Source of the DNA: a virus
Virus record (IMG/VR): IMGVR_UViG_3300036820_000004
Location: 55,754-119,753 of that record
Direction: 5' to 3' (one strand)
DNA length: 64,000 nt
The position numbers and the translations under genes were made by a program. The notes below the pieces were generated by a model. It ran no database searches, was not told the DNA's origin, and saw only the letters and a list, made by a program, of their open reading frames with translations. The number at the start of each line of letters is the position of its first letter. The stretch's first letter is position 1. Positions 2,515 to 58,202 of this stretch are shown here, one piece after another.

Positions 2515-2535
2515 CGTTCGATGCTGGAGGTGACC

Positions 2536-5500
2536 ATGGCCTCCCCTTCGGCCATCCTCGCAGCGAGCAAATCCATGCCCGGCGGGGGCCGGCCGAACCC
2601 GGGCCCCCAGCAGCAGCAAGGCCCTTACATCGGCCGCATGTCCCCGCTGGTGCAGCAACTCAACAATGAGCATGGATATGCGAATACGTATGGCGGCTTT
2701 TTGCCGAGGCCGCCGCAGACGTTTACCGATGGCGCATTCAGCCCGTTCTCGCCGATCATGCCGGTGCCGATTGATGCGCCACCACCTGGCTTCGAGCGGC
2801 CAGAACCCCGGCGATTCGCCTACGAGGTAGGTTACAACCTTCCTATCGGCGACCCGGGCACTGAGGGCGGCTACAAGCTCGCCCCGTTCTCGGTGCTCAA
2901 GTCGCTGTCGAAGAACTACTCGATCGCGCGGCGCTGCATCCAGCTAGTGAAAAAGGAAGTCTGCGGCCTGGACTGGGACATCACCCTCACCTCCCACGCG
3001 GAGAAGGCCTACCAGGGTGACCATGAGGCGCAGCGGGACTTCGGGGAACGGCGCGCGAAGGCGATGCGGTTTTTCCGCAAGCCGGACCCGAACTACTTCG
3101 ACTTCACGTCGTGGATGTCGGCGATGCTGGAGCAGATCCTCACCATCGACGCCCTGAGCTTGTACCTGTGCCCGAAGAAGGGCACCGGGATGGGCCGGGG
3201 CCTGCTCGGCTCGGACCTGGACGGCTTGTGGTGCATCGACGGGGCGACGATCCGGCCGCTGCTGAACCTGCACGGCGGCATGCCCGTCCCCCCCGCGCCC
3301 GCCTACCAGCAGTACGAGTACGGCGTGCCCCGCGCTGATTTCACGACGGTGATGGCCGGCCTGGACCTGCCCGAGATCGCCGGCGGGGAACGCGGGGCTT
3401 ACCGCGGCGACCAGCTGGTCTACCTGCCGATGTGCCCGTTCCCTGACTCGCCGTACGGGTTCTCCCCGACCGAGCAGGCGCTGGTCCCGATCCTGACCGG
3501 GCTCCGCAAGCAGGGCTACCAGCTGGAGTTCTTCACCGAGGGCACCGTGCCCGCGGTTTATATTTCACCAGGCGATACATCCATGACTCCCAATCAGGTA
3601 AGGGAGCTTCAGGATGCATTGAATGCGGTCGCGAACGACCAGGCATTTCATTGGAAAGTCATTGTTTTGCCGCCTGGAAGCAAAACAATGCCACAAAAGC
3701 CTAATGATATTGTCGACCAGAGCGACGAGTGGATCGCCAACGAGGTCTGCATGATGTACGGCGTCTCCCCCATGGACGTCGGCATCCTCCCCAAGGTGTC
3801 CACCGTGGCCAGCCCGTTCGCGGCGCGGGAAATGGCGCAGGCCAGCCGCACCAACCAGGAGAAGACCGACACCACGCCGCTGCTGAAGTTCATCGCCTCG
3901 ATCCCGAACTTCATCCTCCAGATCGTGTGCGACCAGCCGGACATGGAGTTCTCGTTCGAGGGCATGCGCGAGGTCCAGGACGAGGCGGCGCTGACCGACA
4001 CCTACGTCAAGCAGGCGCAGATCGGTGTCCGGTCGGTCGACGAGTTCCGCGACAAGATCGGCCTGCCGCCGTGGGGCCTGGACGAGACGAGCGGCCCGCT
4101 GGTGTTCACGCCGATGGGACCGATCCCCCTGTCGGAGGCCGTGTCGATCGCGCAGGCGCAGGCACAGGCCAAGGCACTGCCGCCCGGGTCGTCCGGCGCC
4201 AAAAAGCCCGCGGTGACCGCGAAGCCGCTGCCGTCCGGCACCGTCACCGGGCGGCAGCGCGCCCGCGGCGGTGCCGCGCTCACCCCGGCGCACGCCGCGT
4301 CCGAAGGGTTCATGCCCGAACGGTCGGCCAAGAAGCCCTCGGCGGGCCCGGCTCACGCCCAGGCGTCAGTTAAGGCGACGCTGGCCGAACTGGAGGCCCT
4401 GACCCGGCACCTGCGCAAGGGACGCCTGATCTCCACATGGGAAGCCCGGCATCTCGAGCCCCGCGCGCTGTCGCTGATCGCCGAGCAGATGGCGAAGGGC
4501 ATGGACGCCGAGCAGGCCGCGGGCCTGGTGAAGACCATCGTCCTGCCGCCCGCGTCCTACCAGTGGGCAGAGAAGGCCCGGCACGAGCAGTCCCCGCAGG
4601 CTCAGATCCAGGCGCAGCAACTGGCCCTGGAGCAGGAGTACACGCGGCGGATCGAGGCCGCGTTCGCGTCCGCTGCCGCCGCGGCGGCGAAACTCATCGC
4701 CGCGTGGGGCGCGGGCACTCTCGCCGTGACTACCGCGGTCCTCGCCGGGCTCATCGCCGCCGAGTTGCGCAAGGCGCTGACGGCAGCGCTGAGCGGCCTG
4801 TGGGCCGACGCGTGGGCGCACGGCGAAGCCGAAGCAGGCGGATCCGCTGGCGGGGCGCTGGAAGCGTTCCTCGGCACCGTCGGCCGGCAGGTGCAGGAGT
4901 GGGTCAGCGAAACCAACGTCGCCGCCATCATCGCCGACCTGCGGGACCTGGCCGGCCTGAAACGCAAGGCCCTGATCGCCGCGCTGCTGCGACTCCTCAA
5001 GGCAGATGAGCGGGCCGAACTCATCGCTGTCACCGAGCTGATGCGCGCCTGGAACCAGGCCGTTCTCGCCGTCTGGAAGCTGCTCGGGGTCACCTATAAG
5101 GGCTGGCAGACCCGCAACGACGCCAAGGTGTGTTTCCCCGCAGGTACGCCCGTGGCGACGCCGACTGGCGAAGTGCCGATCGAGCGGCTAAAGCCCGGGG
5201 ATCTCGTCATCACGCCAGAGGGGCAGCGTCCCGTCATTGCCACCATGGAGCGCCTGTACACAGGTGGCCTTACGGTGATTCAGGCGGAAGGCCGGACGGT
5301 CACGGCGACTGACAATCACCGGTTCATGACCACCAACGGCTGGCGCAAGGCTGCCGACCTCAAGCCCGGGGACCTCCTCAAGTCGCTTGAGGACGAGTCG
5401 GCAGAGATTGGCAGCGTCGTTCACTTCTCGCTCGCCCAGCCGGATGACGTGCCAGCCGAGGCGGCCAAGTTCCGCATCGCGGATGGCGTCCTTGGCCGCA

Positions 5501-7776
5501 GTCCGCTGGTGCCAGTACTCGCCGTCGGCCTCAATGGCGACGGCGAGACTGGTGAGCGCGAAGTCGATCGTCCAGCGGCTCACGTCAAGTTCGGGCGTGA
5601 ACTCAAGGCGCAGCAGGGTGAGCGCCTGACGGACGCGGAACTCCAGCATGGTCTCGCCCGTAAACTTGCGGTAGCAACTGCGGGAGCAGAACTGCCGATC
5701 GGCAGCGGCAAGGCCCGGCTGCGTGCGGAAGGTGACACTGCACGTCTTGCAGGTGAGGTAGACCGGTGGCCGGCGGCATTCCTCGGAACAGAACCGCCTG
5801 TTGAGATGCTTCTCAGCCCGGAAACGCGTTCCGCAGCGGTCACAGTCGACGTACTTGGTCTCGGCAGTGGTACATGCCCGCGAGCACGTCCTGTAGCGCT
5901 CGGCGGTGGACTGGCTGACGGTGAAGTCCTTGCCGCAGACAATGCAGGTCTTCGTGACCTTGCAACTGTCCTCGTAGCACGCCCGGGAGCAGTGGATCTT
6001 GGTCTTGTTATTGAGCCTGCCGGGGCGGAAGACGATGCCGCAGCCCGGGCAAGTGCGTTCGGCGTGGACGCGCGTAGCGGTGTGATAGCACTCGTTGGAG
6101 CAGAAGACTCGGGGGCTCCGGGTGCGCTGAGCACGCACGACGATTTTGCTGCACTGGGCGCATTGGTAAGTGAATGGCACGGACAGGCTTCCCCCATTCA
6201 AGCCATTATCGTTAATCACCCGCTTACAGTTTACAATGTCAGCGTTGAAACGGAGCCCGTTTACTACGCGAGTCGCTTCCTAGTTCACAATTGCGGGGAA
6301 TGCAAGGCCAACCAGGCGGCCGGCTCCATTCCCGTCGGTGCGCGTTTCCCCAGCGGCGACCTGATGCCGCCAGGACATCCGCGCTGCCGGTGTCATGCGA
6401 CCGCGCCCCCGCCCGGCTGGACACCCCCGGTCACGGCCGCGAACAAGAAGCGCAAGCGGGGCGTGAACCTGGACGGCGAAGTCGTTCTGGCCGACGCCAA
6501 GCCCGGAGACGAGAACCCTGCCGGCGGAGGTGGCCGCACCCTTTACCCGCACCGCCCTGACGGAACCGAGGTACCCGGGGGTGTTCCCGGCGCGTCTGCG
6601 GGAGGGGAGCCGCCGCGCTGGGACGCCTCCACCCCGGAACGCCGCGGCTACGTCAACACCTACGGCGAGGACGACGGCGACTGGCCTGAGCATGTCCGCG
6701 AGGTCGCGCCCAGGCCGGATCAGGACTACCCGGACGGCGGCGGCGAAGACGAGGACCTGTGGCCGGAAGGCGGCCACGGCACCGCCCAGCCCCCGGTGAC
6801 GTCGATCGGCGGCGGACCGCGCGGCCGGGCACCAAACGCGGTGGGCAAGGCCGCCGACGCTGCGGCACAGTTCCTGAAGGACGCGCCGAAGGCCAAGGCC
6901 AGCGCGGTGCGCAAGCTCATGCAGGAGAACTTCCCGCCGGACGCCCTCGCCTGGGTAGGTCGCGCCACATGGGTGGGCCCCGTTGAGATCCCGCTGGAAC
7001 TCATGGACCTGTCCGGCCGGAAGGGGTGGGCGGCGAGCCACCAGCAGGGCCACGTCAAGGCCATCGCCCGCGACCTGAAGGCCGGCCGGAAAGTCAACGA
7101 GATCATCGGCGTGCTGCGCCCGGGTCACAACCACGTCCGCCTTGTTGACGGCAGGCATCGCACCCTGGCCTGCGAGAAGAACAAGATGCCGGTCCGCGGC
7201 TACGTCGGGTTCCTGGACCGCGACTCCGACCTGGAAGCGGCGTATGACACCTACCACCAGCAGCATCACTTCGGGGACAGCCCGAAGAACAAGGCCGCAG
7301 GCTACGACCTGAGCCCGCGGTCGGGCATGATCTCCCTGGACCTGCCGGAAGGCCTCATCCAGCCGGTGCCCGGCGGCGTGGACGACCACCACGTGACGGT
7401 CGCCTACCTCGGCAAGGATGTGGACGATAGGGAGCTGGATATTGTGCTGGCGCAGGCACGCACCGCGGCCCGGCATGCTCCGGGCCCGCTGGCCGGGATG
7501 CTGTCCGGCATCGGCTCATTCCCGCCGTCCGATGGCAGTGACGGCATGGTGCCCGCGTTCGTCCCGGCCCGCATCCCCGGCGCGGAGAAGCTCCGCGCCG
7601 ACCTTGAGCACCTGTCGGCCAGCGAGCACAAGGACTGGGCGCCGCACGTCACCCTCGCCTACCTGCAGCCGGGTGAGCCGCTCCCGGCGCCGCATCCCCC
7701 GGTGCCGGTGACGTTCACCCACCTGTCAGTGCACCGGGGCGATGAGGTGTACCGGTTCCCGCTGGGTGGCGAGTGA
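2536..7776 (+). CDS. portal protein fused to MuF head-morphogenesis domain (intein-containing), ParB-like domain and C-terminal 2H phosphoesterase
   Basis: Portal motifs (IDGATIRP, YGFSPTEQAL, FFTEGTVP); MuF motifs (ERAELIAVTE, KGWQT...C..C...PPGHPRCRC); LVDGRHR; two HVT motifs (HHVTVAYLG, PHVTLAYL). GGAGG before ATG 2536; frame open from 2521. Confidence 0.85.
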   Translation: MASPSAILAASKSMPGGGRPNPGPQQQQGPYIGRMSPLVQQLNNEHGYANTYGGFLPRPPQTFTDGAFSPFSPIMPVPIDAPPPGFERPEPRRFAYEVGYNLPIGDPGTEGGYKLAPFSVLKSLSKNYSIARRCIQLVKKEVCGLDWDITLTSHAEKAYQGDHEAQRDFGERRAKAMRFFRKPDPNYFDFTSWMSAMLEQILTIDALSLYLCPKKGTGMGRGLLGSDLDGLWCIDGATIRPLLNLHGGMPVPPAPAYQQYEYGVPRADFTTVMAGLDLPEIAGGERGAYRGDQLVYLPMCPFPDSPYGFSPTEQALVPILTGLRKQGYQLEFFTEGTVPAVYISPGDTSMTPNQVRELQDALNAVANDQAFHWKVIVLPPGSKTMPQKPNDIVDQSDEWIANEVCMMYGVSPMDVGILPKVSTVASPFAAREMAQASRTNQEKTDTTPLLKFIASIPNFILQIVCDQPDMEFSFEGMREVQDEAALTDTYVKQAQIGVRSVDEFRDKIGLPPWGLDETSGPLVFTPMGPIPLSEAVSIAQAQAQAKALPPGSSGAKKPAVTAKPLPSGTVTGRQRARGGAALTPAHAASEGFMPERSAKKPSAGPAHAQASVKATLAELEALTRHLRKGRLISTWEARHLEPRALSLIAEQMAKGMDAEQAAGLVKTIVLPPASYQWAEKARHEQSPQAQIQAQQLALEQEYTRRIEAAFASAAAAAAKLIAAWGAGTLAVTTAVLAGLIAAELRKALTAALSGLWADAWAHGEAEAGGSAGGALEAFLGTVGRQVQEWVSETNVAAIIADLRDLAGLKRKALIAALLRLLKADERAELIAVTELMRAWNQAVLAVWKLLGVTYKGWQTRNDAKVCFPAGTPVATPTGEVPIERLKPGDLVITPEGQRPVIATMERLYTGGLTVIQAEGRTVTATDNHRFMTTNGWRKAADLKPGDLLKSLEDESAEIGSVVHFSLAQPDDVPAEAAKFRIADGVLGRSPLVPVLAVGLNGDGETGEREVDRPAAHVKFGRELKAQQGERLTDAELQHGLARKLAVATAGAELPIGSGKARLRAEGDTARLAGEVDRWPAAFLGTEPPVEMLLSPETRSAAVTVDVLGLGSGTCPRARPVALGGGLADGEVLAADNAGLRDLATVLVARPGAVDLGLVIEPAGAEDDAAARASAFGVDARSGVIALVGAEDSGAPGALSTHDDFAALGALVSEWHGQASPIQAIIVNHPLTVYNVSVETEPVYYASRFLVHNCGECKANQAAGSIPVGARFPSGDLMPPGHPRCRCHATAPPPGWTPPVTAANKKRKRGVNLDGEVVLADAKPGDENPAGGGGRTLYPHRPDGTEVPGGVPGASAGGEPPRWDASTPERRGYVNTYGEDDGDWPEHVREVAPRPDQDYPDGGGEDEDLWPEGGHGTAQPPVTSIGGGPRGRAPNAVGKAADAAAQFLKDAPKAKASAVRKLMQENFPPDALAWVGRATWVGPVEIPLELMDLSGRKGWAASHQQGHVKAIARDLKAGRKVNEIIGVLRPGHNHVRLVDGRHRTLACEKNKMPVRGYVGFLDRDSDLEAAYDTYHQQHHFGDSPKNKAAGYDLSPRSGMISLDLPEGLIQPVPGGVDDHHVTVAYLGKDVDDRELDIVLAQARTAARHAPGPLAGMLSGIGSFPPSDGSDGMVPAFVPARIPGAEKLRADLEHLSASEHKDWAPHVTLAYLQPGEPLPAPHPPVPVTFTHLSVHRGDEVYRFPLGGE
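5131..6291 (+). mobile_element. intein (387 aa) inserted just before the first Cys of the MuF CxxC motif
   Basis: Block A CFPAGTPV, block B TATDNHRF, block F VYNVSVE, block G LVHN followed by Cys +1; removal gives NDAKV-CGECKAN. Confidence 0.93.
5188..6180 (-). CDS. zinc-finger-repeat DUF559/Vsr-like endonuclease encoded antisense within the intein
   Basis: Five CxxC...CSxxC repeats, then IDFA...AIEADGEYWH...KDAIRDAEL...GWHVIRLGE; GTG 6180 preceded by GGGGGAAG; frame open from 6219. Confidence 0.85.
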   Translation of the reverse strand: MPFTYQCAQCSKIVVRAQRTRSPRVFCSNECYHTATRVHAERTCPGCGIVFRPGRLNNKTKIHCSRACYEDSCKVTKTCIVCGKDFTVSQSTAERYRTCSRACTTAETKYVDCDRCGTRFRAEKHLNRRFCSEECRRPPVYLTCKTCSVTFRTQPGLAAADRQFCSRSCYRKFTGETMLEFRVRQALTLLRLEFTPELDVSRWTIDFALTSLAVAIEADGEYWHQRTAAKDAIRDAELGRLGWHVIRLGEREVNDAANLCRLVLKRLEEVPGLEVGSLAPAVGGHEPVIVSRRDRPAFRLNHRKATCVQALHGGNDGTLPLWRDDEIPGL

Positions 7777-10700: not shown

Positions 10701-13700
10701 GTGGCCGCTGCAGTCCTGACCGAGCCCGAGGCCGCGAAGGCTGCGACCACGTCTGCCGGTGATGACCTCGTCTACTTCTCGATGCCCATCGAGAAGTCGG
10801 AGGACACCAAGACCGTCAATCCCGTGGACGGCACCCCCGACATAGAAATCTTCGGGAAAGTGACCGACGGGACTGTTGACTCGGATCTTCAGGTGGTCGA
10901 TCCCGAGGCCAGCCTGCGGTGGATCAAGCGCTGGAAGGACGACGGCAAAGCCAACGTCCGGATGCAGCATGATCCGAAGAAGCCGGTCGGCAAAGGCCTG
11001 CACGTCGATGGCCACAACGTCCGTGCCCTGATCGCTGACCCGATCGCGAAGCACTTCATCCGCACGGGCATCCTCAACGACTGGTCCATCGGGATCATGA
11101 ACCCGGACATCCGCCGGGGCGATCCCGCATTCAAGCACCTGGACCCGGCGGGCAAGGCCATCAACGGCGTGATCACCGACCGGGCGGACGGGCTCACCGG
11201 ACTGGGTGAGATCAGCGTTGTCGACCGCGGGTCGAATTACGGCACCAAGTTCTCCCTGTGCAAGGCAGCGGCCGATGGCTCGGTGGAGTGGACCGGCGAG
11301 CTGACCGCGCCAGACGAGGTGCTGGCCAAGGCCGCGGCCCCGGCGAAGCCCAAGACGGTGACGGTCGAACTGCCGGCCGACATGCACGTCAGCATCAAGC
11401 CGTCCCAGCTGGCCAGGCTTGCCACGTTCGGGCAGCAGCTGGCGCGCGAGCAGGCGGCAGCGAAGGGCGCCGTGCCGTCGGTGATCACCAAGACGGCGGA
11501 ACCGGATGCGGCCAAGGCTGACAATGCTGCACCCGAACCGGTTCCCGGCGCCCTGCATGACGCTGTGCTGAACCGCGCCGCGGAGGCAGCGGTTTACAAG
11601 CGCGACATCGACACCGCGACCCGCAGCCGTCTCGCCAGCGAGGGCAAGGCGCTGAGCGACGGCTCATACCCGATCGAAACCGAATCGGACATGCACAATG
11701 CCTACACCCTCGCCCGGTCCAAGCACGGGAAGTGGAAGGCCGCGCTCAAGCTCATCGCCCGCCGCGCGAAGCAGGAGGGCTGGACGCCTCCGGGTAAGCA
11801 GGACAAGGTCGCGGCCAAGGGCGCCAAGCCGCAGGTCACCAAGTGCATGAAGTGCGACGGCTCCGGGATGACAGACGGCAAGCCCTGCCCGGACTGCAAG
11901 AAAGGCAAGAAGGCACTCAAGGCGCAGAAGCGCACGATCCGCAAGGCGCTCCGCCACCTGGACGATTTCGCCTCCGTGGTCAACGGCCAGCCGGCGACCA
12001 AGAAGGCCAAGGTCCTGTGCGGCGGCTGCGGGGCCAAGCAGAGCCGCAAGCATCAGATGTGCACCGAATGCGGCAAGCCCATGGCCGGGGCCATGCCGGT
12101 CACCAAGAACCACGACTTCCGGTGCCTGGGCTGCGGCCACGACCCGCTCGACAAGGGCGAGAAGCACTGCCCGCAGTGCGGCAAGGAAAACCCCGGCTAC
12201 AACCCGATGGCCGACCACAAAATCCCCATGAACGCGGGCAAGGCAGCCGCTAAGGAGCGTGTGAGCAAGCGGAAGAAGGCCAAGAGCGGCAAGGGCAAGA
12301 AGGGGAACCCGTTCGGGGACAAGCAGGCTCCTCCCTTCGGCGCCAAAGACGACAGCGGCGAGGACGGCGGGAAAAAGCCATCCAGGGCCAAGAAGGCCGC
12401 GAGCCCGCAGGCCGCCAAGCGCAAGGGAAAGGGCAAGGGCCGCAACCCGGCGCACGGTGTCACCGGCCACGGCGGCGACGTCAAGGGCCTGCCCGCTCAC
12501 CGCGAACCGGACGGCGCGCCGGTCGAGGAGTTCGAGGACGACGCGAACATGCAGGACGGCGACGAACGGCAGGAAATGGCCGCGGCGATGCGCCACAAAG
12601 CCCTCGGGGCCGCGGGCCTGTCCCGCGAGGACGCGCTCCTGCACGACCTGACCTGCGCCGCGTTCCGCCCGGCGGACGTGCGCAAATGCTTCCCCTACGC
12701 CTCCCTCGGCGACATCGACGGCGCCATGTGGCAGCGGCAGGCCCTGATGAAGGCCGCGGCCGCCCCGGCAGCGGAAGCGCTCGCGATGCGGGACCTGTTC
12801 CGCCACGCCGAAACCCTCAAGAACGCATCGGATGACCTGCTGCTAGACCTGCGTGAGCAGGCCCACGCGGACTTCCTCGCGGTCAACAAGGTGCTGACTG
12901 ACGCCACCCCGGGCCCGGCGTCGTTCCCGACCCCGGCGCATGTCACCCCGCAGCAGTATCAGCGGCCGTACATTCACGAGGGCCATTCGGCGCCGTCACC
13001 GCAGCAGGGCGCCCCGCACGACTTCCGCGTTCCCGAAGGCCAGCCGTCGGCGGAGGACTTCACCCGCGGATTCCTCGCCGATGGCCGCGCCGCGGACGCC
13101 CCGGCCAACGACACCCCCCGGCATGAGCCCATTCCGGCACCGATGACCCCCGGCATGCCGTCCCGCGTTTATTACACCGGGGCGATGCGGGACAACGCCC
13201 GCCAGGCGATGACCGCCATGCACGACCACATCTCCCGCGTTTTCCCCGACGTGTGCCCCATGTCCCCGGAGGTCAGCGGCATTCAGAAGCCCGCACCGCA
13301 GGTCCCCGAAGGCGTCGGCGGCCCGGCACCGAGGAGCGGCAAGAAGGCCGCGAAGGCGAAGGCCCGCAAGCAGCGCAAAGCCCTGGCCGCCAAGCGCCGC
13401 CGTCTCGAGCAGCGCGTCCTGAAGGGATCGATGACCGTGAAGCAGGCACGCCGCAAGCTCGGCCTCAAGGCCAAGGGCGCCAACCTCACAGCGATGAAGC
13501 TGGCCAAGGCGTTGCCTTCTCCTTCGGTGCCGGTTCCTTCTCCGCTGGATCCGGACGTCATCAAGGCGGCCATCGCCGAGGCCAACGCGCCGCTCCTCGA
13601 GCGCATCGCCGCCCAGGACAAGACCCTGCGCAAGCAGCGGAAGGCCATCGACGCCATCGCCGACCACGCCGACACCTCCCAGGCCCCCCTCCGCGGGGTG

Positions 13701-13895
13701 GTCTCCCTCAACAAGGCTTCTGCGGCGCCGGCGGCGCCGCAGACCGCTACGGCATCCGCGGAGCGGGTGCAGATGGCGGAACTCCAGCGACTCCACTACG
13801 TGTCGCGCTCCAGCCCGGACCCGGGCATGCGGGAAGCAGCCCGCCGGGACCTCGAAACCAAGCTCGGACTGGACTCCATGACCCCTCAGACGTAA
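10701..13895 (+). CDS. prohead protease / scaffold polyprotein with zinc ribbons
   Basis: N-terminal maturation-protease motifs (VRMQH, WSIG, EISVVDRGSN); ALSDGSYPI module; several CxxC pairs; immediately upstream of capsid. Confidence 0.75.
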   Translation: MAAAVLTEPEAAKAATTSAGDDLVYFSMPIEKSEDTKTVNPVDGTPDIEIFGKVTDGTVDSDLQVVDPEASLRWIKRWKDDGKANVRMQHDPKKPVGKGLHVDGHNVRALIADPIAKHFIRTGILNDWSIGIMNPDIRRGDPAFKHLDPAGKAINGVITDRADGLTGLGEISVVDRGSNYGTKFSLCKAAADGSVEWTGELTAPDEVLAKAAAPAKPKTVTVELPADMHVSIKPSQLARLATFGQQLAREQAAAKGAVPSVITKTAEPDAAKADNAAPEPVPGALHDAVLNRAAEAAVYKRDIDTATRSRLASEGKALSDGSYPIETESDMHNAYTLARSKHGKWKAALKLIARRAKQEGWTPPGKQDKVAAKGAKPQVTKCMKCDGSGMTDGKPCPDCKKGKKALKAQKRTIRKALRHLDDFASVVNGQPATKKAKVLCGGCGAKQSRKHQMCTECGKPMAGAMPVTKNHDFRCLGCGHDPLDKGEKHCPQCGKENPGYNPMADHKIPMNAGKAAAKERVSKRKKAKSGKGKKGNPFGDKQAPPFGAKDDSGEDGGKKPSRAKKAASPQAAKRKGKGKGRNPAHGVTGHGGDVKGLPAHREPDGAPVEEFEDDANMQDGDERQEMAAAMRHKALGAAGLSREDALLHDLTCAAFRPADVRKCFPYASLGDIDGAMWQRQALMKAAAAPAAEALAMRDLFRHAETLKNASDDLLLDLREQAHADFLAVNKVLTDATPGPASFPTPAHVTPQQYQRPYIHEGHSAPSPQQGAPHDFRVPEGQPSAEDFTRGFLADGRAADAPANDTPRHEPIPAPMTPGMPSRVYYTGAMRDNARQAMTAMHDHISRVFPDVCPMSPEVSGIQKPAPQVPEGVGGPAPRSGKKAAKAKARKQRKALAAKRRRLEQRVLKGSMTVKQARRKLGLKAKGANLTAMKLAKALPSPSVPVPSPLDPDVIKAAIAEANAPLLERIAAQDKTLRKQRKAIDAIADHADTSQAPLRGVVSLNKASAAPAAPQTATASAERVQMAELQRLHYVSRSSPDPGMREAARRDLETKLGLDSMTPQT

Positions 13896-13943
13896 ACCGC
13901 GCCGCGCCGCGAAAGCGCGCGGCAGCAGCGAAAGCGAGACCGT

Positions 13944-16691
13944 GTGACAGCAGTTCTGGACGGCACCATCCCGTCCCTGAATGACGGCGTGACCGCGCCG
14001 CCGCCCGACCAGGTCACCAAGGCGCTCTACGGAGAAGCCGCACGGCCCGACCTGGGCACCAGCCAGTACTCGAACACCGCCGAAGCCCTCGTCGGCAAGA
14101 TGAGCCACCTCGTCAAGGGCGCCGGCTTCGCCGGCGAGGGCGGCAACACGCCGCTGACCAACCAGGCCGACATCGGCCGCCGCGCGTTCGAGGCGACGAT
14201 CGACCTGCGTTCCGCCACCCGCCAGGGCATCTACGCCAAGTCGACGGTGGTCAAGTCCATGTCCCAGGATTTCCTGGGCCGGTTCGGCGCGCTGCGCCTG
14301 GCCCTGGAAACCCCGTCCATCCAGGAGTTCATCGGCACCGTCGCCAGCCCGGACATCGCCCGGTCATTCACGGCCGGAAATTTGGGGATAGGGTCGACGT
14401 ACGGTTTGACCCCTTTCAACCTGTTGGCTCCCTCCCGCCTTAACTAGATGGGGCCGTCGCGCCGTGAGGCGCGGATGACAACTCCGCGAACTGCTGGAAC
14501 ACCCGAGCCACCTGCGTGCGCCACAACGTGAGGCGAAAGCCTGAGCGTGACGGCCGAAAAGCTACGCAGCAGGGGCAATCAGCAGCCAAGCCCGCCTGCC
14601 GTCGGCGACGGGAAGGTCCAGAGAGCATGCACGGAGCGCCTCCCTGAGGCGATGATGTGCTCCGAGCCTGCGTGAGAGCGCAGGAGGCGACCGGAAACGA
14701 GCCGCCCCTCTGTTGAAACGGACAGAGAGTAACAATTTACGCATCTATCCCATCTATACCGTCAACTAGGCGGCTCCGGAGGGCGACCTCCGGATGACAA
14801 GCGCACTGCCCGGGGAACCCCGCCCGTATACTGACCTGAAGCCGTCGCTCGCGCCCTCCTCATACAGGGGTACGATCGGCGGTTTGCTGTGTCTGGGGAA
14901 TCCCGGTCCGCGGCGATGCCCGCCGCGGTGTAGAGACTGTACGTGCGCGCTCTGCCACGGACGCGGCCACGGGGCATTACGTGGCCACGGCCGCAGAGCA
15001 TGAGACAGTCCGGACCTGCGTGGATGGCAAACCGCAGGAGGCGCACGGAAACGATGCGCCCGCTCGCCTCTTCGGCGAGAGGTAACAGAATCGCTACCGC
15101 AACAAGTTCGCCCGGCCGCCCGGCCAGGGCGCGTCCCTGATCGAGCGTCTCGCGGTCGGCATCTCCGGTTCACAGACCGGCGGCCAGTCCGTGCTGGACT
15201 TCTCGATCCCTGAGATGGTGCAAACCGGCGGGTCGTTCGGCCAGTGGCCGCTCAACCTGCCCCCGGCCGTCAGCGAGCAGTTTGTGACACTGAACGTGCC
15301 GTATCGTTTCTTCGGCGTCACGGAGCAGCTCAGCTTCCTCGCCCAGTGGGCAGGGCAGGGGTTCGAGGATCTGTCCGCGCTCGCCAACCTGATCCTTCTG
15401 CAGGCCGCCATGCAAGCGGAGGAGTTCCAGCTGATCGCGGGATCGTCGGCGAACCTGGCCATCCCGGCCGCGCCAACGTGCACGGTCCGCAACGCCCAGT
15501 CCAACGAGACCGCGCTGTCCACTTCGGTCGTCAACGTCCAGGTGGCTGCGGCGAACTACTTCGGCCGCACGGCTTCCAGCGGGTCCACGTCGGTGACGGT
15601 GGGCGCGGGCCAGGTCGTGGACGTGACCATCTCGCCTGTGACCGGGGCGATGAACTACCAGATCTTCGGCCTTTCCTCGGTCCCGACCACGTACCTGCTC
15701 GCGACCTGCGGGGGCGTGAAGTACACGCTGCAGGGCGCGCTGCCCGCGGCGGTCACCACCAACCCGACGGCTGACACCGGCACCGGGGCCGGAACCCGGA
15801 TGGAAGGCGTCATCCCGACCCTGACCGGCCTGTCGGCGCAGGCGGCCATCTACCCGAACGGCAACCCGATCGTCTGGCAGGGCGGCTACGTCAACCAGAA
15901 CGTCGGCCAGCACCTCAACTACAACGTCATCTACACCGCGCTGAAGGCGCTGTTCGACTCGCCGTCGATCTCGCCGGGGGCGTTCAAGGCCGACCCGGCG
16001 GAGATCATCTCCTCGGGTTCGGACATCGCGAACCTGTCCCAGGATGTGATCTCGCAGGGTTCGGGCACCAACTTCGAGCTGTTCATCAAGCAGGGCGAAG
16101 TCGGGAACGTCACCGTCGGTGCGGCCGTCAGCCAGTTCCAGAACCCGGTCACGAGGTCCATCCTGAAGACCGTGGTCCACCCGTTCTACCTGCAAGGCAA
16201 CGCGGAACTGCTGTCCTACCAGCTCCCCCAGAGCTGGACGAACGTGGCCAACGCGTGGGAAGTGTCCTGCGTGCAGGACTATGTGACGCTCAACTAACTA
16301 GGGCGCGCGGCAGGGTGACCTGCCGTGGAAAACGGCACTGTTCGGGGAACCCCTCCAATCACCGGGGAATCCCGAGCTTCAGCGATGCCCGCTGGAGTGT
16401 AGAGACTGTACGTGCCGGATCTGTGCGACGGGATCAGCGACGGGGCATTACGCCGCTGGCACCGCAGATCATGAGACAGGCCGATCTGCACCGATGGAAA
16501 AGGTGCAGAGGCCGGCAGAAATGACCGGCCCGCTCACCATCTGGTGAGAGGTAACAGAATGCGCACTCCCCGTGATCGATGTGACCTACAGGTACATCCT
16601 CCTGCTCATGGCTGCCCTGGTGGCCCATGCTCCGATGTATTCTGCCCACCTGGGCGGTTTGCAGCAGTCTGATGTGACTCCGTACAGTTAG
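13944..16691 (+). CDS. major capsid protein, four exons: 13944-14440, 14742-14762, 15094-16290, 16562-16691 (614 aa spliced)
   Basis: Spliced length 1845 nt and stop-free; junctions read LLAPSRL-IYPIYTV-YRNKFARP and VQDYVTL-ALPVIDVTYRY; follows the protease. Confidence 0.85.
14441..14741 (+). ncRNA. group I intron 1 (301 nt, no ORF)
   Basis: Exon ends in U, intron ends in G; IGS UAGAUG-GGGC pairs with 3' exon CAUCUA (P10) and 5' exon GCCU (P1); P AACUGCUGGAA, Q AAUCAGCAG, P3 CUCCG/CGGAG, P7 GAGCA/UGCUC. Confidence 0.92.
14763..15093 (+). ncRNA. group I intron 2 (331 nt, no ORF)
   Basis: IGS UAG-GCGG pairs with CUA and CCGU; P3 GCGCAC/GUGCGC; R GUAGAGACUG, S GACAGUCC; terminal G. Confidence 0.92.
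16291..16561 (+). ncRNA. group I intron 3 (271 nt, no ORF)
   Basis: P1 GGCG/CGCU; P3 CGGCAC/GUGCCG; R GUAGAGACUG, S GACAGGCC (one P7 mismatch); same 3' GAGAGGUAACAGAAU as intron 2; frame restored. Confidence 0.88.
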
Positions 16692-16733
16692 TCCTAGTTT
16701 GTCCGGTTTGGCAAACCTATGACTCCCGCCTCA

Positions 16734-16772
16734 GGGCCGACCCGGGTACTACGAAAGTACCCGGGTCGGCCC
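16734..16772 (+). terminator. perfect 17-bp hairpin after capsid gene (terminator or mRNA stabiliser)
   Basis: GGGCCGACCCGGGTACT-ACGAA-AGTACCCGGGTCGGCCC; no U tract. Confidence 0.65.
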
Positions 16773-16795
16773 CAACCATCCAAGGAAAGGACCGT

Positions 16796-17164
16796 GTGAG
16801 CGGAATCTTCGCGGCCGGAATCCAGCAGGTTCAGTCCAGCATCGGCACGACCTCGGCGCTGGTCTGGAACCCTGAGAACACCAGTGCCACCACGTTCGGC
16901 CCGCTGGGCTCCGTCCCGGCCACCGCGGTCCTCAAGGACGTGACCATCCTCAACACCGGCACCGTGACCGTGTACATCGGGTCCGGGTCGCTTACCGCGG
17001 GCGGGTCGCAGACCCCGCTGGCCATCCCGGTCGGCGGCCAGGTCACCGTCCAGGGCTACTCGGTGTCCAGCCCGTCTGGTGCTACCGGGCAGATCTGGGG
17101 CAACACGTCCTCAGGCACCGGTTCCACGCTGGCCGGGCTGGTGTCTGTCGCGAGCGTGATCTGA
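16796..17164 (+). CDS. small beta-rich virion (head decoration-like) protein
   Basis: AAGGAAAGGA RBS; G/T/S/V-rich; NTGTVTVYIG motif. Confidence 0.6.
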   Translation: MSGIFAAGIQQVQSSIGTTSALVWNPENTSATTFGPLGSVPATAVLKDVTILNTGTVTVYIGSGSLTAGGSQTPLAIPVGGQVTVQGYSVSSPSGATGQIWGNTSSGTGSTLAGLVSVASVI

Positions 17165-55730: not shown

Positions 55731-58202
55731 CAGGTGCCGTCCTTCCTGGCCCGGACCTCTTTGTGAGCCCTGTGCCAGCGCCTGCGGGCGGCATCTGACT
55801 CCGACACGCCCGAGGTCTCGCCGCACTCACACAAGGCCACGCCGGTCTTGGAGCCGTACACCCGGAGCCACGGACTGGTCTCGCCGCGCTCGAACGGCTT
55901 GCCTTCGTGGTGGAGGCCGTGGCCGGCCAGGCGGGTGCTACGCATCCGGGCGCTCCTCCCGTACGTCGGCCTCGGGGAGCTTCAGGTAGACGCGCAACTT
56001 CTCGCCGAGGTGCTCGATGAGCCCAGCGACAAGCGCGGCACCGAACTGATCAGACCGTCCGCGGGCTGCCTCGTCCAGGCATCCGTCAACGTCGCGGCAC
56101 AGGCCGTCCTGGACGTCCCACCATTGCTCCCATGCCGCGTCACTGTCCGGCTGCGGCTCGCTCGCTCCAGCGCCGGGCAGGCGGATGCTAGCCATGACGC
56201 CCCTCCTTGCTGAGCAGTTCTCCGGCGATGACCCGCCTCAGTTCGCTCGCGCACTCAGCCTGAGCGTCGTGGCCGGTGGAGAACTTCTCCCAGCGGGAGG
56301 CGGCTTCCAGTGCCGCCTCAACCGCAGCGACGAAGCCCGGAAACAGTTCCGTCACCATCGTGTGCTCGGTCTCTGCGTCGCCCGGCCTCGACCGCGCGGT
56401 CTCAATGAGTGCCCGGACGTGGCCGAGGTAGGCGGTTGCTTGGTCGTCAGCCATCGCGCGCCTCCAGCAGACCGGCGAGCACCAGCACGGCACGAACCTC
56501 GGCCGCTGCCGGCGCTTGCTTGCGGTAGTAGTCGACCTGGACGCGCGTGAGCGGTGCCCCGGCGCGGATCTCCCAGTGCCCGGTGTAGTGGTCGATGGCC
56601 AGGTTGTGGTTCTTGCCGCCGGGGAACCACACCCAGCACTCGCGCACGTAGTTGCCTCGCTCACCGCGGAGCGGGACCGGCATCTGCGGGATGCGCGACT
56701 CGCCGTAGAGGGCGGTCAGTTCATCCAGCCACGGCCGGTCTGTCACGATGATCTCACTCATCGGTGCCCCTCCTCCTTCACGCCCAGCCCGGCGATGTCC
56801 GCCTGGACGGCTTGCAGTGCCCTGGCCAGGTTCGCGGCGTGCATCGCGGTGGCGTGCAGGTCTCTTGCTGCCTGCTCGCATGCCTCCTGCGGGTCGCCGG
56901 TCTTGGCGTCGTAGATGCGTCCCGTGGCGAGGTGTCCCCGCAGGAACCGGTCAAGCTGCTCGCACATCTGCGGGATGCGGCCGGTTGCGGAGTAGAAATC
57001 AGCGACGAGGCGGCAGGCGTCGGCCGGGTAATCCAGGCCGCCCTTGTCGCTCATCGTGGCGTAGGTCAAAAACCGGGAGCAGTCGTCGAGCAGCTGGCCG
57101 GCCTCGGCGGTGCGCTCCGGATTGTGGGGGCCATCCGGGTTCAGGTCGATGTCCATTGTCAGTACAACCTCATGTCGAAGCCGTCGGGGTTGTTGTCGTC
57201 ATCAGCGGACGGCGGCCCGTAGTCCACGTTCCCGGCCGCGTCTACGTACAGGCCGTTGTCCTGAGCCCATTCCAGGTAGACGTCATCGGGGTAGGCCTCA
57301 GGGCTCAGGTTGTGGTCGCGGTACCAGTCAGGCATTGTCGCTCACCCGCACATGGCGGCGAGGATCAGCTTGACCTCTCGCGGGCCGTCGTAGCCGATGT
57401 GATCGAGCACGGTGCCGAACGCCGCGAGCTCGTTCTCACCGGGCGGGGCGAGTGTGGCTGGGTCGATCTCCTCGGAACCCCACTCGGCCTGGCTGTACGA
57501 CCGCCTGAGGACCAGGAGCGTGCCCCCGGACTCGTAGCCGTAGTTCTTGAATGTTACGGGCACGGCTGCCTCAAGACGCTGCTGCCATGGCACGCGGACC
57601 GTCTCGCGCCATTCCCGGCGCTCAGCACCTGTCGCGCTCTCGGGAAGATTGAAGGCGGGCGGTTCCTCGGTGAAGCCGAACAGGCCGGGCATCACCTTGT
57701 TCTCAAGGACGTAGGTGTCGACGCCGAGTTCGTCGAAGTCGTATCCCTCGGCGGTGTTCTCCGGGTCATCGAAGTCGATGCCCCAGGCGATCTTGGCGTA
57801 AGGACTGCTTCCCATGTCAGATTCCCTCCGTAGTCGTCGTCTCAGGTTCGGTCGTCCCGTTGTCAGGCACCAGCCGGAACCGCCACGTACAACGCGGCGA
57901 GACGGCGATGTCAGGGGCGTGACCCCACGACGGGATGCACGCCTGCCCGATGAACGACTTGACGCGCCGTGACTTCAGGTCAAGCACCGCGACGTGGGTT
58001 GCGACCTCGCGCTTGCACCATTCGCAGGTCAGCGGGGAGTCCTCGGTGCCGTTCTCGGCAGGCGCGTGCAGCTGGCCGCCGGGGCACCAGAGGTCTCCGG
58101 GCCGTTCCCCGCTGACAGCGACCCACGAGTTGCCCCCGTCGCCGAGAGGGACGATCAAGGCTCGGCAGCGGCAGGAGATCGGGGTGTGGGTGGTGGTGGT
58201 CA

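Follow-up and report, generated by a model that had tools for sequence, protein, structure and literature searches.

Group I introns that divide a phage virion gene into several pieces have a precedent in orf142 of Staphylococcus phage Twort, which contains three of these introns and an exon of 23 nucleotides (nt) (PMC10136302, PMC11878797). Here, we describe a comparable arrangement in a 64,000-nt stretch of viral DNA, positions 55,754 to 119,753 of the IMG/VR record IMGVR_UViG_3300036820_000004 (hereafter, the window), where we read the gene at 13944-16691 as the major capsid gene, with an HK97 fold, of a phage of Actinomycetota, split by three small group I introns that lack an endonuclease gene. 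We give this reading a probability of about 90%. It is carried by exon collinearity, by RNA structure with covariation, by homology to introns that Rfam recognizes, and by the capsid fold, each of which is shown below.

The likeness to Twort is one of layout. Both orf142 and the window gene are virion structural genes with three group I introns free of open reading frames (ORFs); both possess a micro-exon (23 nt in Twort, 21 nt here) flanked by two introns, and in both cases two of the three introns are close paralogues. The Twort gene, however, encodes a tail tube protein rather than a capsid protein, and the Twort host is low-GC, whereas the DNA here is 68% GC. Furthermore, the Twort micro-exon lies between two similar IA2 introns and exon skipping occurs, whereas the one described here lies between unlike introns, called types A and B below, which have different guides.

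A parallel for a capsid gene is found in the Cluster J mycobacteriophages (PMC3706429). LittleE, also a phage of high-GC Actinomycetota, has a group I-like intron in its major capsid gene that is spliced after a U in the exon and after a G at the intron's end; the tail-gene intron of BAKA and Optimus (265 base pairs [bp] in BAKA) likewise has no endonuclease gene; and similar introns turn up at different sites in genes, as they do here. There are three differences: the Cluster J genes, in that account, have one intron each and the window gene has three; the LAGLIDADG-like ORF within the LittleE intron is encoded on the bottom strand, while the ORFs in relatives of the window introns are DUF559 ORFs on the sense strand; and splicing was shown in Cluster J by reverse transcription PCR and N-terminal sequencing, whereas here it is inferred from sequence (PMC3706429). 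The same article cites a capsid intron in the lactococcal phage Tuc2009.

The Jug gut phages have about 18 short introns per genome that split terL and other genes, and crAss-like phages are also named in that report (PMC12880540). As here, essential genes are broken up by short group I introns (~206 nt in Jug phages) that lack an ORF, terL for instance into two to three pieces, and gene callers report the fragments. In Jug phages, though, the introns are spread over many genes, while here the searches of the 119.7-kb record found them in the capsid gene only, and the Jug hosts are Bacteroidota rather than Actinomycetota (PMC12880540). A micro-exon (34 nt) between two group I introns of different subgroups is described from the 23S rRNA gene of Coxiella burnetii, a bacterial rRNA gene as opposed to the phage protein-coding gene considered here (PMC10136302).

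Given the precedents of Twort, LittleE, BAKA, Tuc2009, and the Jug phages, the window arrangement belongs to a known kind. An initial annotation of the window had stated that phage group I introns are mostly reported in DNA-metabolism genes of lower-GC phages; this is incomplete, since introns in capsid and tail genes, in high-GC phages as well, and a three-intron gene with a 23-nt exon have already been described (PMC3706429, PMC10136302, PMC11878797). What is new is a three-intron capsid gene in a high-GC phage, an intron type missed by the Rfam model RF00028, and the density of intron sites across the clade. Among the titles, abstracts, and text passages that a literature search covered, there was no report of a three-intron capsid gene or of this clade.

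Three plus-strand ORFs, of 167, 368, and 39 amino acids (aa), are called between 13944 and 16691. Joining the exons by their coordinates (Table 1) yields a coding sequence (CDS) of 1845 nt, that is, 614 codons and a terminal stop, with no internal stop codon; the initial annotation had predicted this stop-free 614-aa protein upon removal of three inserts of 271-331 nt, and its coordinates decode exactly. The inserts are ORF-less, as it had also proposed, none of the seven small frames within or overlapping them having a Pfam match. All three introns lie at codon phase 2, and each contains an in-frame stop two codons inside: TAG at 14445-14447, TAG at 14767-14769, and TAA at 16295-16297. The database protein for the window's own capsid gene, P0004, is the 368-aa inner ORF of exon 3; the databases thus hold a fragment, and the gene is mis-annotated in just the way foreseen for gene callers.

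Full-length homologues are collinear with the joined exons. Of 8000 candidates scored against the exon 3 peptide, 988 proved to be relatives at E ≤ 0.001; from the 120 listed, the 85 that are at least 590 aa long served as the full-length set for the joints. Collinearity at the predicted junctions had been named as a check, and all 85 are free of gaps across the three joints, that is, in aa 160-180 (joints 1 and 2) and aa 565-580 (joint 3); the joined window protein adds no extra alignment column at any of them. LIYPIYTVYR, the junction peptide named in the initial annotation, is conserved throughout. The closest among the matches listed is P0005, also 614 aa long, with 90.2% identity over 613 positions. 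At the nucleotide level, 56 related capsid loci (numbered with the prefix L) were retrieved from viral contigs, of which tblastn with the joined protein placed 28 as uninterrupted, three as cut by contig ends, and 25 as split. In the intron-less relative L002 (83.5% nucleotide identity), the DNA is continuous across the same three points.

Splice-site recognition was assessed with 33 introns resolved to the base, three in the window and 30 in 17 of the split relatives. The first helix, P1, was defined as a U.G wobble followed by Watson-Crick pairs only, with the guide lying within the first 45 nt of the intron. A P1 of at least four pairs (U.G and at least three Watson-Crick pairs) forms with the intron's own exon in 31 of the 33, against 32% of 976 combinations with swapped exons, and none of 5000 permutations reached the observed P1 mean. 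The guide changes along with 16 different exon ends (e.g., CCGU/GCGG, CGCU/GGCG, CCAU/GUGG, CCCU/GGGG, and GAUCU/GGAUC). In the window, the exon end GCCU pairs with the guide GGGC at 14451-14454 in intron 1, CCGU with GCGG at 14770-14773 in intron 2, and CGCU with GGCG at 16302-16305 in intron 3; at the site of intron 3, the exon in relatives L037 and L040 ends in CCAU instead, and their guide is GUGG. P10 comprises six pairs in intron 1 (14742-14747 with 14445-14450) and three in intron 2. The initial annotation had called P10 clear for introns 1 and 2 only, which holds for intron 1 and for its absence from intron 3 (a single pair), while that of intron 2 is weak. P10 is dispensable in many group I introns.

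P3 and P7 occur in all three window introns, with P7 reading GAGCAUG/UGUGCUC in intron 1, GACUG/CAGUC in intron 2, and GACUG/CAGGC in intron 3. The P1, P3, and P7 pairings, the U of the 5′ exon, and the terminal G with which the inserts had originally been described are present in all three, with one A.G mismatch in P7 of intron 3. Among the peripheral elements, P2, P9.1, and P9.2 are there, no helix separates P3′ from P7 or from P8, and type A has a long P5 extension.

Comparison by blastn sub-divides the introns into two types, type A resembling intron 1 and type B resembling introns 2 and 3. The latter two share 75% identity, and copies in other phages are 70-84% identical to those of the window. 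The type A consensus (eight sequences) comprises P2 to P9.2 and the P3/P7 pseudoknot, with 94.4% of cells paired and two-sided changes in 51 of its 85 pairs; type B (12 sequences) has the same helix order, with 95.9% of cells paired and 43 of 73 pairs changed on both sides. No shuffle out of 500 was as good for either type, and controls in which the structure was slid along the alignment paired 32-38% of cells in type A and 30-40% in type B. Compensatory change between related introns that occupy the same sites in independent assemblies indicates selection on the RNA. P7 itself covaries within type A. The two types have a homologous 3′ domain in common, the type A profile matching introns 2 and 3 at E values of 4e-5 and 8e-5, and some introns, such as L051a and L044s, look by eye like hybrids in which a type B 5′ end is joined to type A core features. 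RNAalifold also proposed, in both alignments, a long-range helix of the guide with the 3′ end, which was dropped as a competitor of P1.

Taken alone, the Rfam result is weak. There is no match in the window at the gathering score. In E-value mode, intron 1 and RF00028 align over their full length (model positions 1-253, P1 to P9 in order) at 23.7 bits, the cut-off being 50, and introns 2 and 3 have no match at E up to 10; 11 other Rfam rows (microRNA [miRNA], small nucleolar RNA, CRISPR, and similar; E 0.55-7.7) were taken as chance. Three type A relatives that align with intron 1 do pass, namely those of L048 (65.7 bits), L017 (60.7 bits), and L035 (56.2 bits), and they are the only RF00028 matches above cut-off in 18 loci comprising 141,816 nt. 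No type B member is detected by RF00028, be it introns 2 and 3 or any of the 12 aligned sequences. The covariance-model match that the initial annotation put forward as a check is, therefore, weak when taken alone (sub-threshold for intron 1, none for introns 2 and 3) and is rescued by the homologues that pass, by covariation, and by the tracking of exon ends by guides. Taken together, homology and covariation make up for the weak Rfam result and support the view that the inserts are two related types of group I intron.

The identity of the gene product comes from its predicted fold. A profile search of 1.84 billion representative sequences found 816 relatives at E ≤ 0.001, and 71 diverse full-length sequences were used as AlphaFold input for P0005, since 40 close homologues had given an unusable model (predicted local distance difference test [pLDDT] 45.4). 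The resulting model has a pLDDT of 78.8 and a predicted template modelling score of 0.71, with the first ~160 residues uncertain. Foldseek returned 94 matches in the PDB at E ≤ 0.001, and those listed are phage capsids (Pa223 at 3e-11, SPO1, SU10, HK97, and T5) and two encapsulins. Encapsulins have the same fold as HK97-type phage capsids. The model of this homologue and its structural matches support the assignment of the product as an HK97-fold major capsid protein, as the initial annotation had it. The PHROG match, PHROG 13692, is of unknown function; the Pfam family SU10_MCP matches weakly in three of the 71 distant relatives (best E 0.0011), and a language-model atlas gave a weak lead to the same family. 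Residues 1-160 (13944-14420) appear as low-confidence helices in the model. This N-terminal region of ~160 residues could represent a delta domain or a scaffold-like one, lost when the capsid matures.

The 21-nt exon 2 serves both of its neighbours. Its first six nt form P10 of intron 1 and its last four form P1 of intron 2 (with 14770-14773), so the double role originally assigned to it can be read from the sequence. By direct reading, the end of exon 1 offers no pairing to the guide of intron 2, and the start of exon 3 offers none to the P10 partner of intron 1. In tandem Tetrahymena introns, differing splice-site recognition elements were concluded to select for exon inclusion (PMC10136302). 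Because of that work, and because neither intron's guide fits the other's exon, the differing types and guides (GGGC and GCGG) should by analogy favour inclusion of the micro-exon over skipping, which would entail the in-frame loss of seven conserved residues. Relatives have micro-exons too, with lengths of 23 nt (L048), 27 nt (L033), 29 nt (both L033 and L042), 42 nt (between the first two introns of L051), and 45 nt (L044).

The window introns are members of a larger family. The 33 resolved introns occupy 17 CDS sites, packed into three conserved stretches, with nine sites within nt 444-518, one at nt 726, five within nt 806-843, and three within nt 1709-1754; these stretches are the richest in invariant residues. 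The counts cover resolved introns of 17 of the 25 split loci. L030 was unresolved; L031 and L032 (the same insert between residues 269 and 279 as in L033) and L038 and L039 (matching L037) were not counted again; L045-L047 (site 843, ~1086 nt) were left out; and five inserts without base-level boundaries (the second of L041, the middle one of L044, the third of L048, the 269|281 insert of L051, and the first of L054) stand outside the counts. Each window intron recurs at its own site in independent assemblies: intron 1 in L051, intron 2 in L033, L042, and L040, and intron 3 in L037 and L040. Within the 119.7-kb genome, nhmmer searches with both intron profiles and RF00028 found no introns other than these three.

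Larger members of the family (985-1345 nt) contain sense-strand ORFs, with DUF559 in eight of nine tested and HTH and/or NUMOD3 in six. We take DUF559 to be a Vsr-like PD-(D/E)xK nuclease, and these ORFs probably encode homing endonucleases. The 790-nt intron L037a has no Pfam match on either strand. The capsid gene of L051 (L051:700-5240) possesses introns at sites 455, 497, and 1754 and, from residue 269 to residue 281, an insert of ~1380 nt, possibly a pair of introns, hence four or five in one gene. In L048, a 53-nt insert in the capsid gene (L048:2350-2402) has a length that is not a multiple of 3, a U before it and a G at its end, and a small hairpin inside. A group I intron that passes the Rfam cut-off follows 23 nt downstream, but the insert itself is far too short to be one.

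How the family has spread may be reflected in its guides. Four sites end in CCGU and all are served by the guide GCGG (naive binomial P = 0.006). The L037 intron at site 1715 is 86% and 83% identical to the introns of L054 and L051 at site 1754, with which it shares the exon end CCAU and the guide GUGG, and is 81% identical to window intron 3 at its own site. We tentatively raise the possibility, doubtful as it is at present, that the capsid genes of this clade form a natural record of intron jumps by guide pairing (reverse splicing) rather than by endonuclease homing alone. If true, a protein-coding example of spread by reverse splicing over many sites would be new.

The gene would be expressed as follows. 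It would be transcribed as a single precursor, and the in-frame stop two codons inside each intron would halt ribosomes so that the RNA folds; in-frame intron stops are viewed as stalling ribosomes so that the intron can fold (PMC3984707). Each guide would pair with the last four nt of the upstream exon, with the U.G wobble at the splice site, and two guanosine-initiated transesterifications would release the intron after its terminal G. Pairing with both neighbours, in P10 of intron 1 and in P1 of intron 2, would keep exon 2 in place, and three splicing events would join the four exons into the 614-aa reading frame. The window introns would be endonuclease-less descendants of a mobile family whose larger members carry DUF559 genes and which has colonized at least 17 sites in this family of capsid genes.

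Several points weigh against this account. None of the three window introns reaches the RF00028 cut-off. P7 is invariant within type B, and since it does not vary there, it lends no covariation support. In intron 3, the mismatch in P7 (A.G at 16405/16480) falls in a five-pair helix and is common to L037, and P10 is essentially absent. The P1 helices are short, mostly of four pairs. A U before the intron and a G at its end are found in 33 of 33 resolved introns, the three of the window included, a count that is partly by construction because these boundaries were chosen among cuts equivalent at the protein level. Sequence searches do not name the protein, Pfam giving no family for the exon ORFs or P0005 and PDB sequence profile searches nothing significant (Hsp70 at E ≥ 0.37, capsid chains at E 0.15). 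Splicing, its autocatalytic nature, its efficiency, and the role of the stops are things we infer from sequence.

Among the alternatives, the one that survives best, though we consider it unlikely, is that these are true group I introns which are not autocatalytic under physiological conditions, either needing a maturase or chaperone of the phage or host or, in the case of intron 3, splicing poorly. The P7 mismatch and single P10 pair of intron 3 and the four-pair P1 helices would fit such dependence, as would the lack of any endonuclease or maturase ORF within the window introns. Yet L037 keeps the same P7 mismatch in a gene that is otherwise intact, the core helices are nearly perfect, and a capsid gene requires high-level expression.

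A dead gene, with decayed intron remnants that do not splice in a capsid pseudogene of a defective or mis-assembled genome, is a far more remote prospect. One might suspect it from the sub-threshold Rfam scores and from the origin of the record in a metagenome assembly rated 91% complete, but the exons, free of frameshifts and stops, share 90% identity with a 614-aa homologue that is intact, 70-82 of 73-85 structural pairs are kept, related introns sit at the same sites in independent assemblies with compensatory change, and tblastn of the 119.7-kb record gave no further copy of this gene. That the inserts are inteins, group II introns, translational bypass elements, or assembly chimeras is barely conceivable: nothing specific speaks for it beyond the 53-nt insert of L048, a sign that other interruptions exist in the gene family, whereas lengths of 301, 331, and 271 nt (a multiple of 3 plus 1), each with an early in-frame stop, exclude inteins, the inserts are far too short for group II introns, the P1 to P9 helices, P3/P7 pseudoknot, U.G wobble, and terminal G fit group I, and the same inserts occur in many independent contigs.

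With the capsid gene read as split by three group I introns, the most abundant virion protein would be made only after three splicing events, one of them across a 21-nt exon, and the efficiency of splicing would therefore set burst size. Many "proteins" of 360-445 aa in this family are probably fragments of such genes. Since type B is missed by the standard Rfam model, surveys of introns in high-GC phages will arrive at too low a count of this type. The family also constitutes a compact data set on the spread of group I introns, with its 17 sites, members that have or lack an endonuclease gene, and inter-type hybrids.

Table 1. Exons, introns, and predicted intron structure elements of the capsid gene (window positions), with examples of large introns in related loci (positions within each locus)
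Feature	Position	Strand	Remarks
Exon 1, capsid gene	13944..14440	+	Start codon GTG; last base U, in codon 166 (phase 2)
Intron 1	14441..14741	+	301 nt; predicted type A group I intron; RF00028 23.7 bits; 82/85 consensus pairs formed
Exon 2	14742..14762	+	21-nt micro-exon
Intron 2	14763..15093	+	331 nt; predicted type B group I intron; from alignment; 72/73 consensus pairs formed
Exon 3	15094..16290	+	1197 nt; called only as inner ORF 15191-16297 (368 aa)
Intron 3	16291..16561	+	271 nt; predicted type B group I intron; paralogue of intron 2; 70/73 consensus pairs formed
Exon 4	16562..16691	+	130 nt including TAG stop 16689-16691
Intron 1, P2 to P5	P2 14457-14474; P3 14482-14486/14632-14636; P4 14492-14497/14579-14584; P5 and extension 14501-14576	+	Alignment of type A
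Intron 1, P6 to P8	P6 14585-14617; P7 14623-14629/14656-14662; P8 14637-14651	+	Alignment of type A
Intron 1, P9 to end	P9 14667-14684; P9.1 14686-14706; P9.2 14708-14727; terminal G 14741	+	Alignment of type A
Intron 2, P2 to P5	P2 14775-14794; P3 14801-14806/14943-14948; P4-P5 14810-14821/14895-14906	+	Alignment of type B; ~70 nt between P5 strands
Intron 2, P6 to P8	P6 14908-14928; P7 14935-14939/15006-15010; P8 14949-14999	+	Alignment of type B
Intron 2, P9 to end	P9 15015-15038; P9.1 15040-15060; P9.2 15066-15076; terminal G 15093	+	Alignment of type B
Intron 3, P2 to P6	P2 16307-16326; P3 16333-16338/16412-16417; P4-P5 16342-16353/16364-16375; P6 16377-16397	+	Alignment of type B
Intron 3, P7 to P9	P7 16404-16408/16477-16481; P8 16418-16470; P9 16486-16508	+	Alignment of type B
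Intron 3, P9.1 to end	P9.1 16510-16530; P9.2 16536-16545; terminal G 16561	+	Alignment of type B
Large introns of relatives	L009:2776-3885, L017:2895-3989, L033:831-1922, L043:2927-3910, L051:871-1884, and others	sense	ORFs of 268-370 aa with DUF559

The source record is 119,753 bp long, and the window is its 3′ 64 kb, with a G+C content of 67.7%. Three further capsid relatives lie in bacterial sequence: L060 in a metagenome-assembled genome (MAG) of Streptosporangiaceae, with a ~1340-nt insert at site 489; L061, uninterrupted, in a 678-kb contig of Actinoallomurus vinaceus, where it is possibly part of a prophage; and L062 in a MAG of Actinomycetota, with a ~1130-nt type B insert at site 518. 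Since these relatives come from Actinomycetota, the hosts would be Actinomycetota as well, and the source is apparently a soil phage of high-GC bacteria with a genome of ~120 kb.

The position of the capsid gene fits a head module, in which the gene order is portal, a 1064-aa ORF, and capsid. The portal match (phrog_2662, E 2e-53) lies upstream at 2521-7776, in a 1751-aa portal fusion. The 1064-aa ORF at 10701-13895, between the portal and capsid genes, has only weak double zinc-ribbon matches; its position would suit a fusion with a scaffold or protease, which no family match supports. Pfam gave no useful match for this ORF or for a neighbouring 122-aa ORF. A scan of 13600-17000 for promoters and terminators returned no sites. 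About 40 nt past the capsid stop codon, at 16730-16775, there is a perfect GC-rich hairpin with no T tract, which the terminator scan did not call and which gave a chance match to an miRNA family in Rfam. Among named phages, tblastn matched only Thermoanaerobacterium phage THSA-485A (two records, 24.5% identity), in which the capsid homologue is found downstream of the terminase and two large ORFs.

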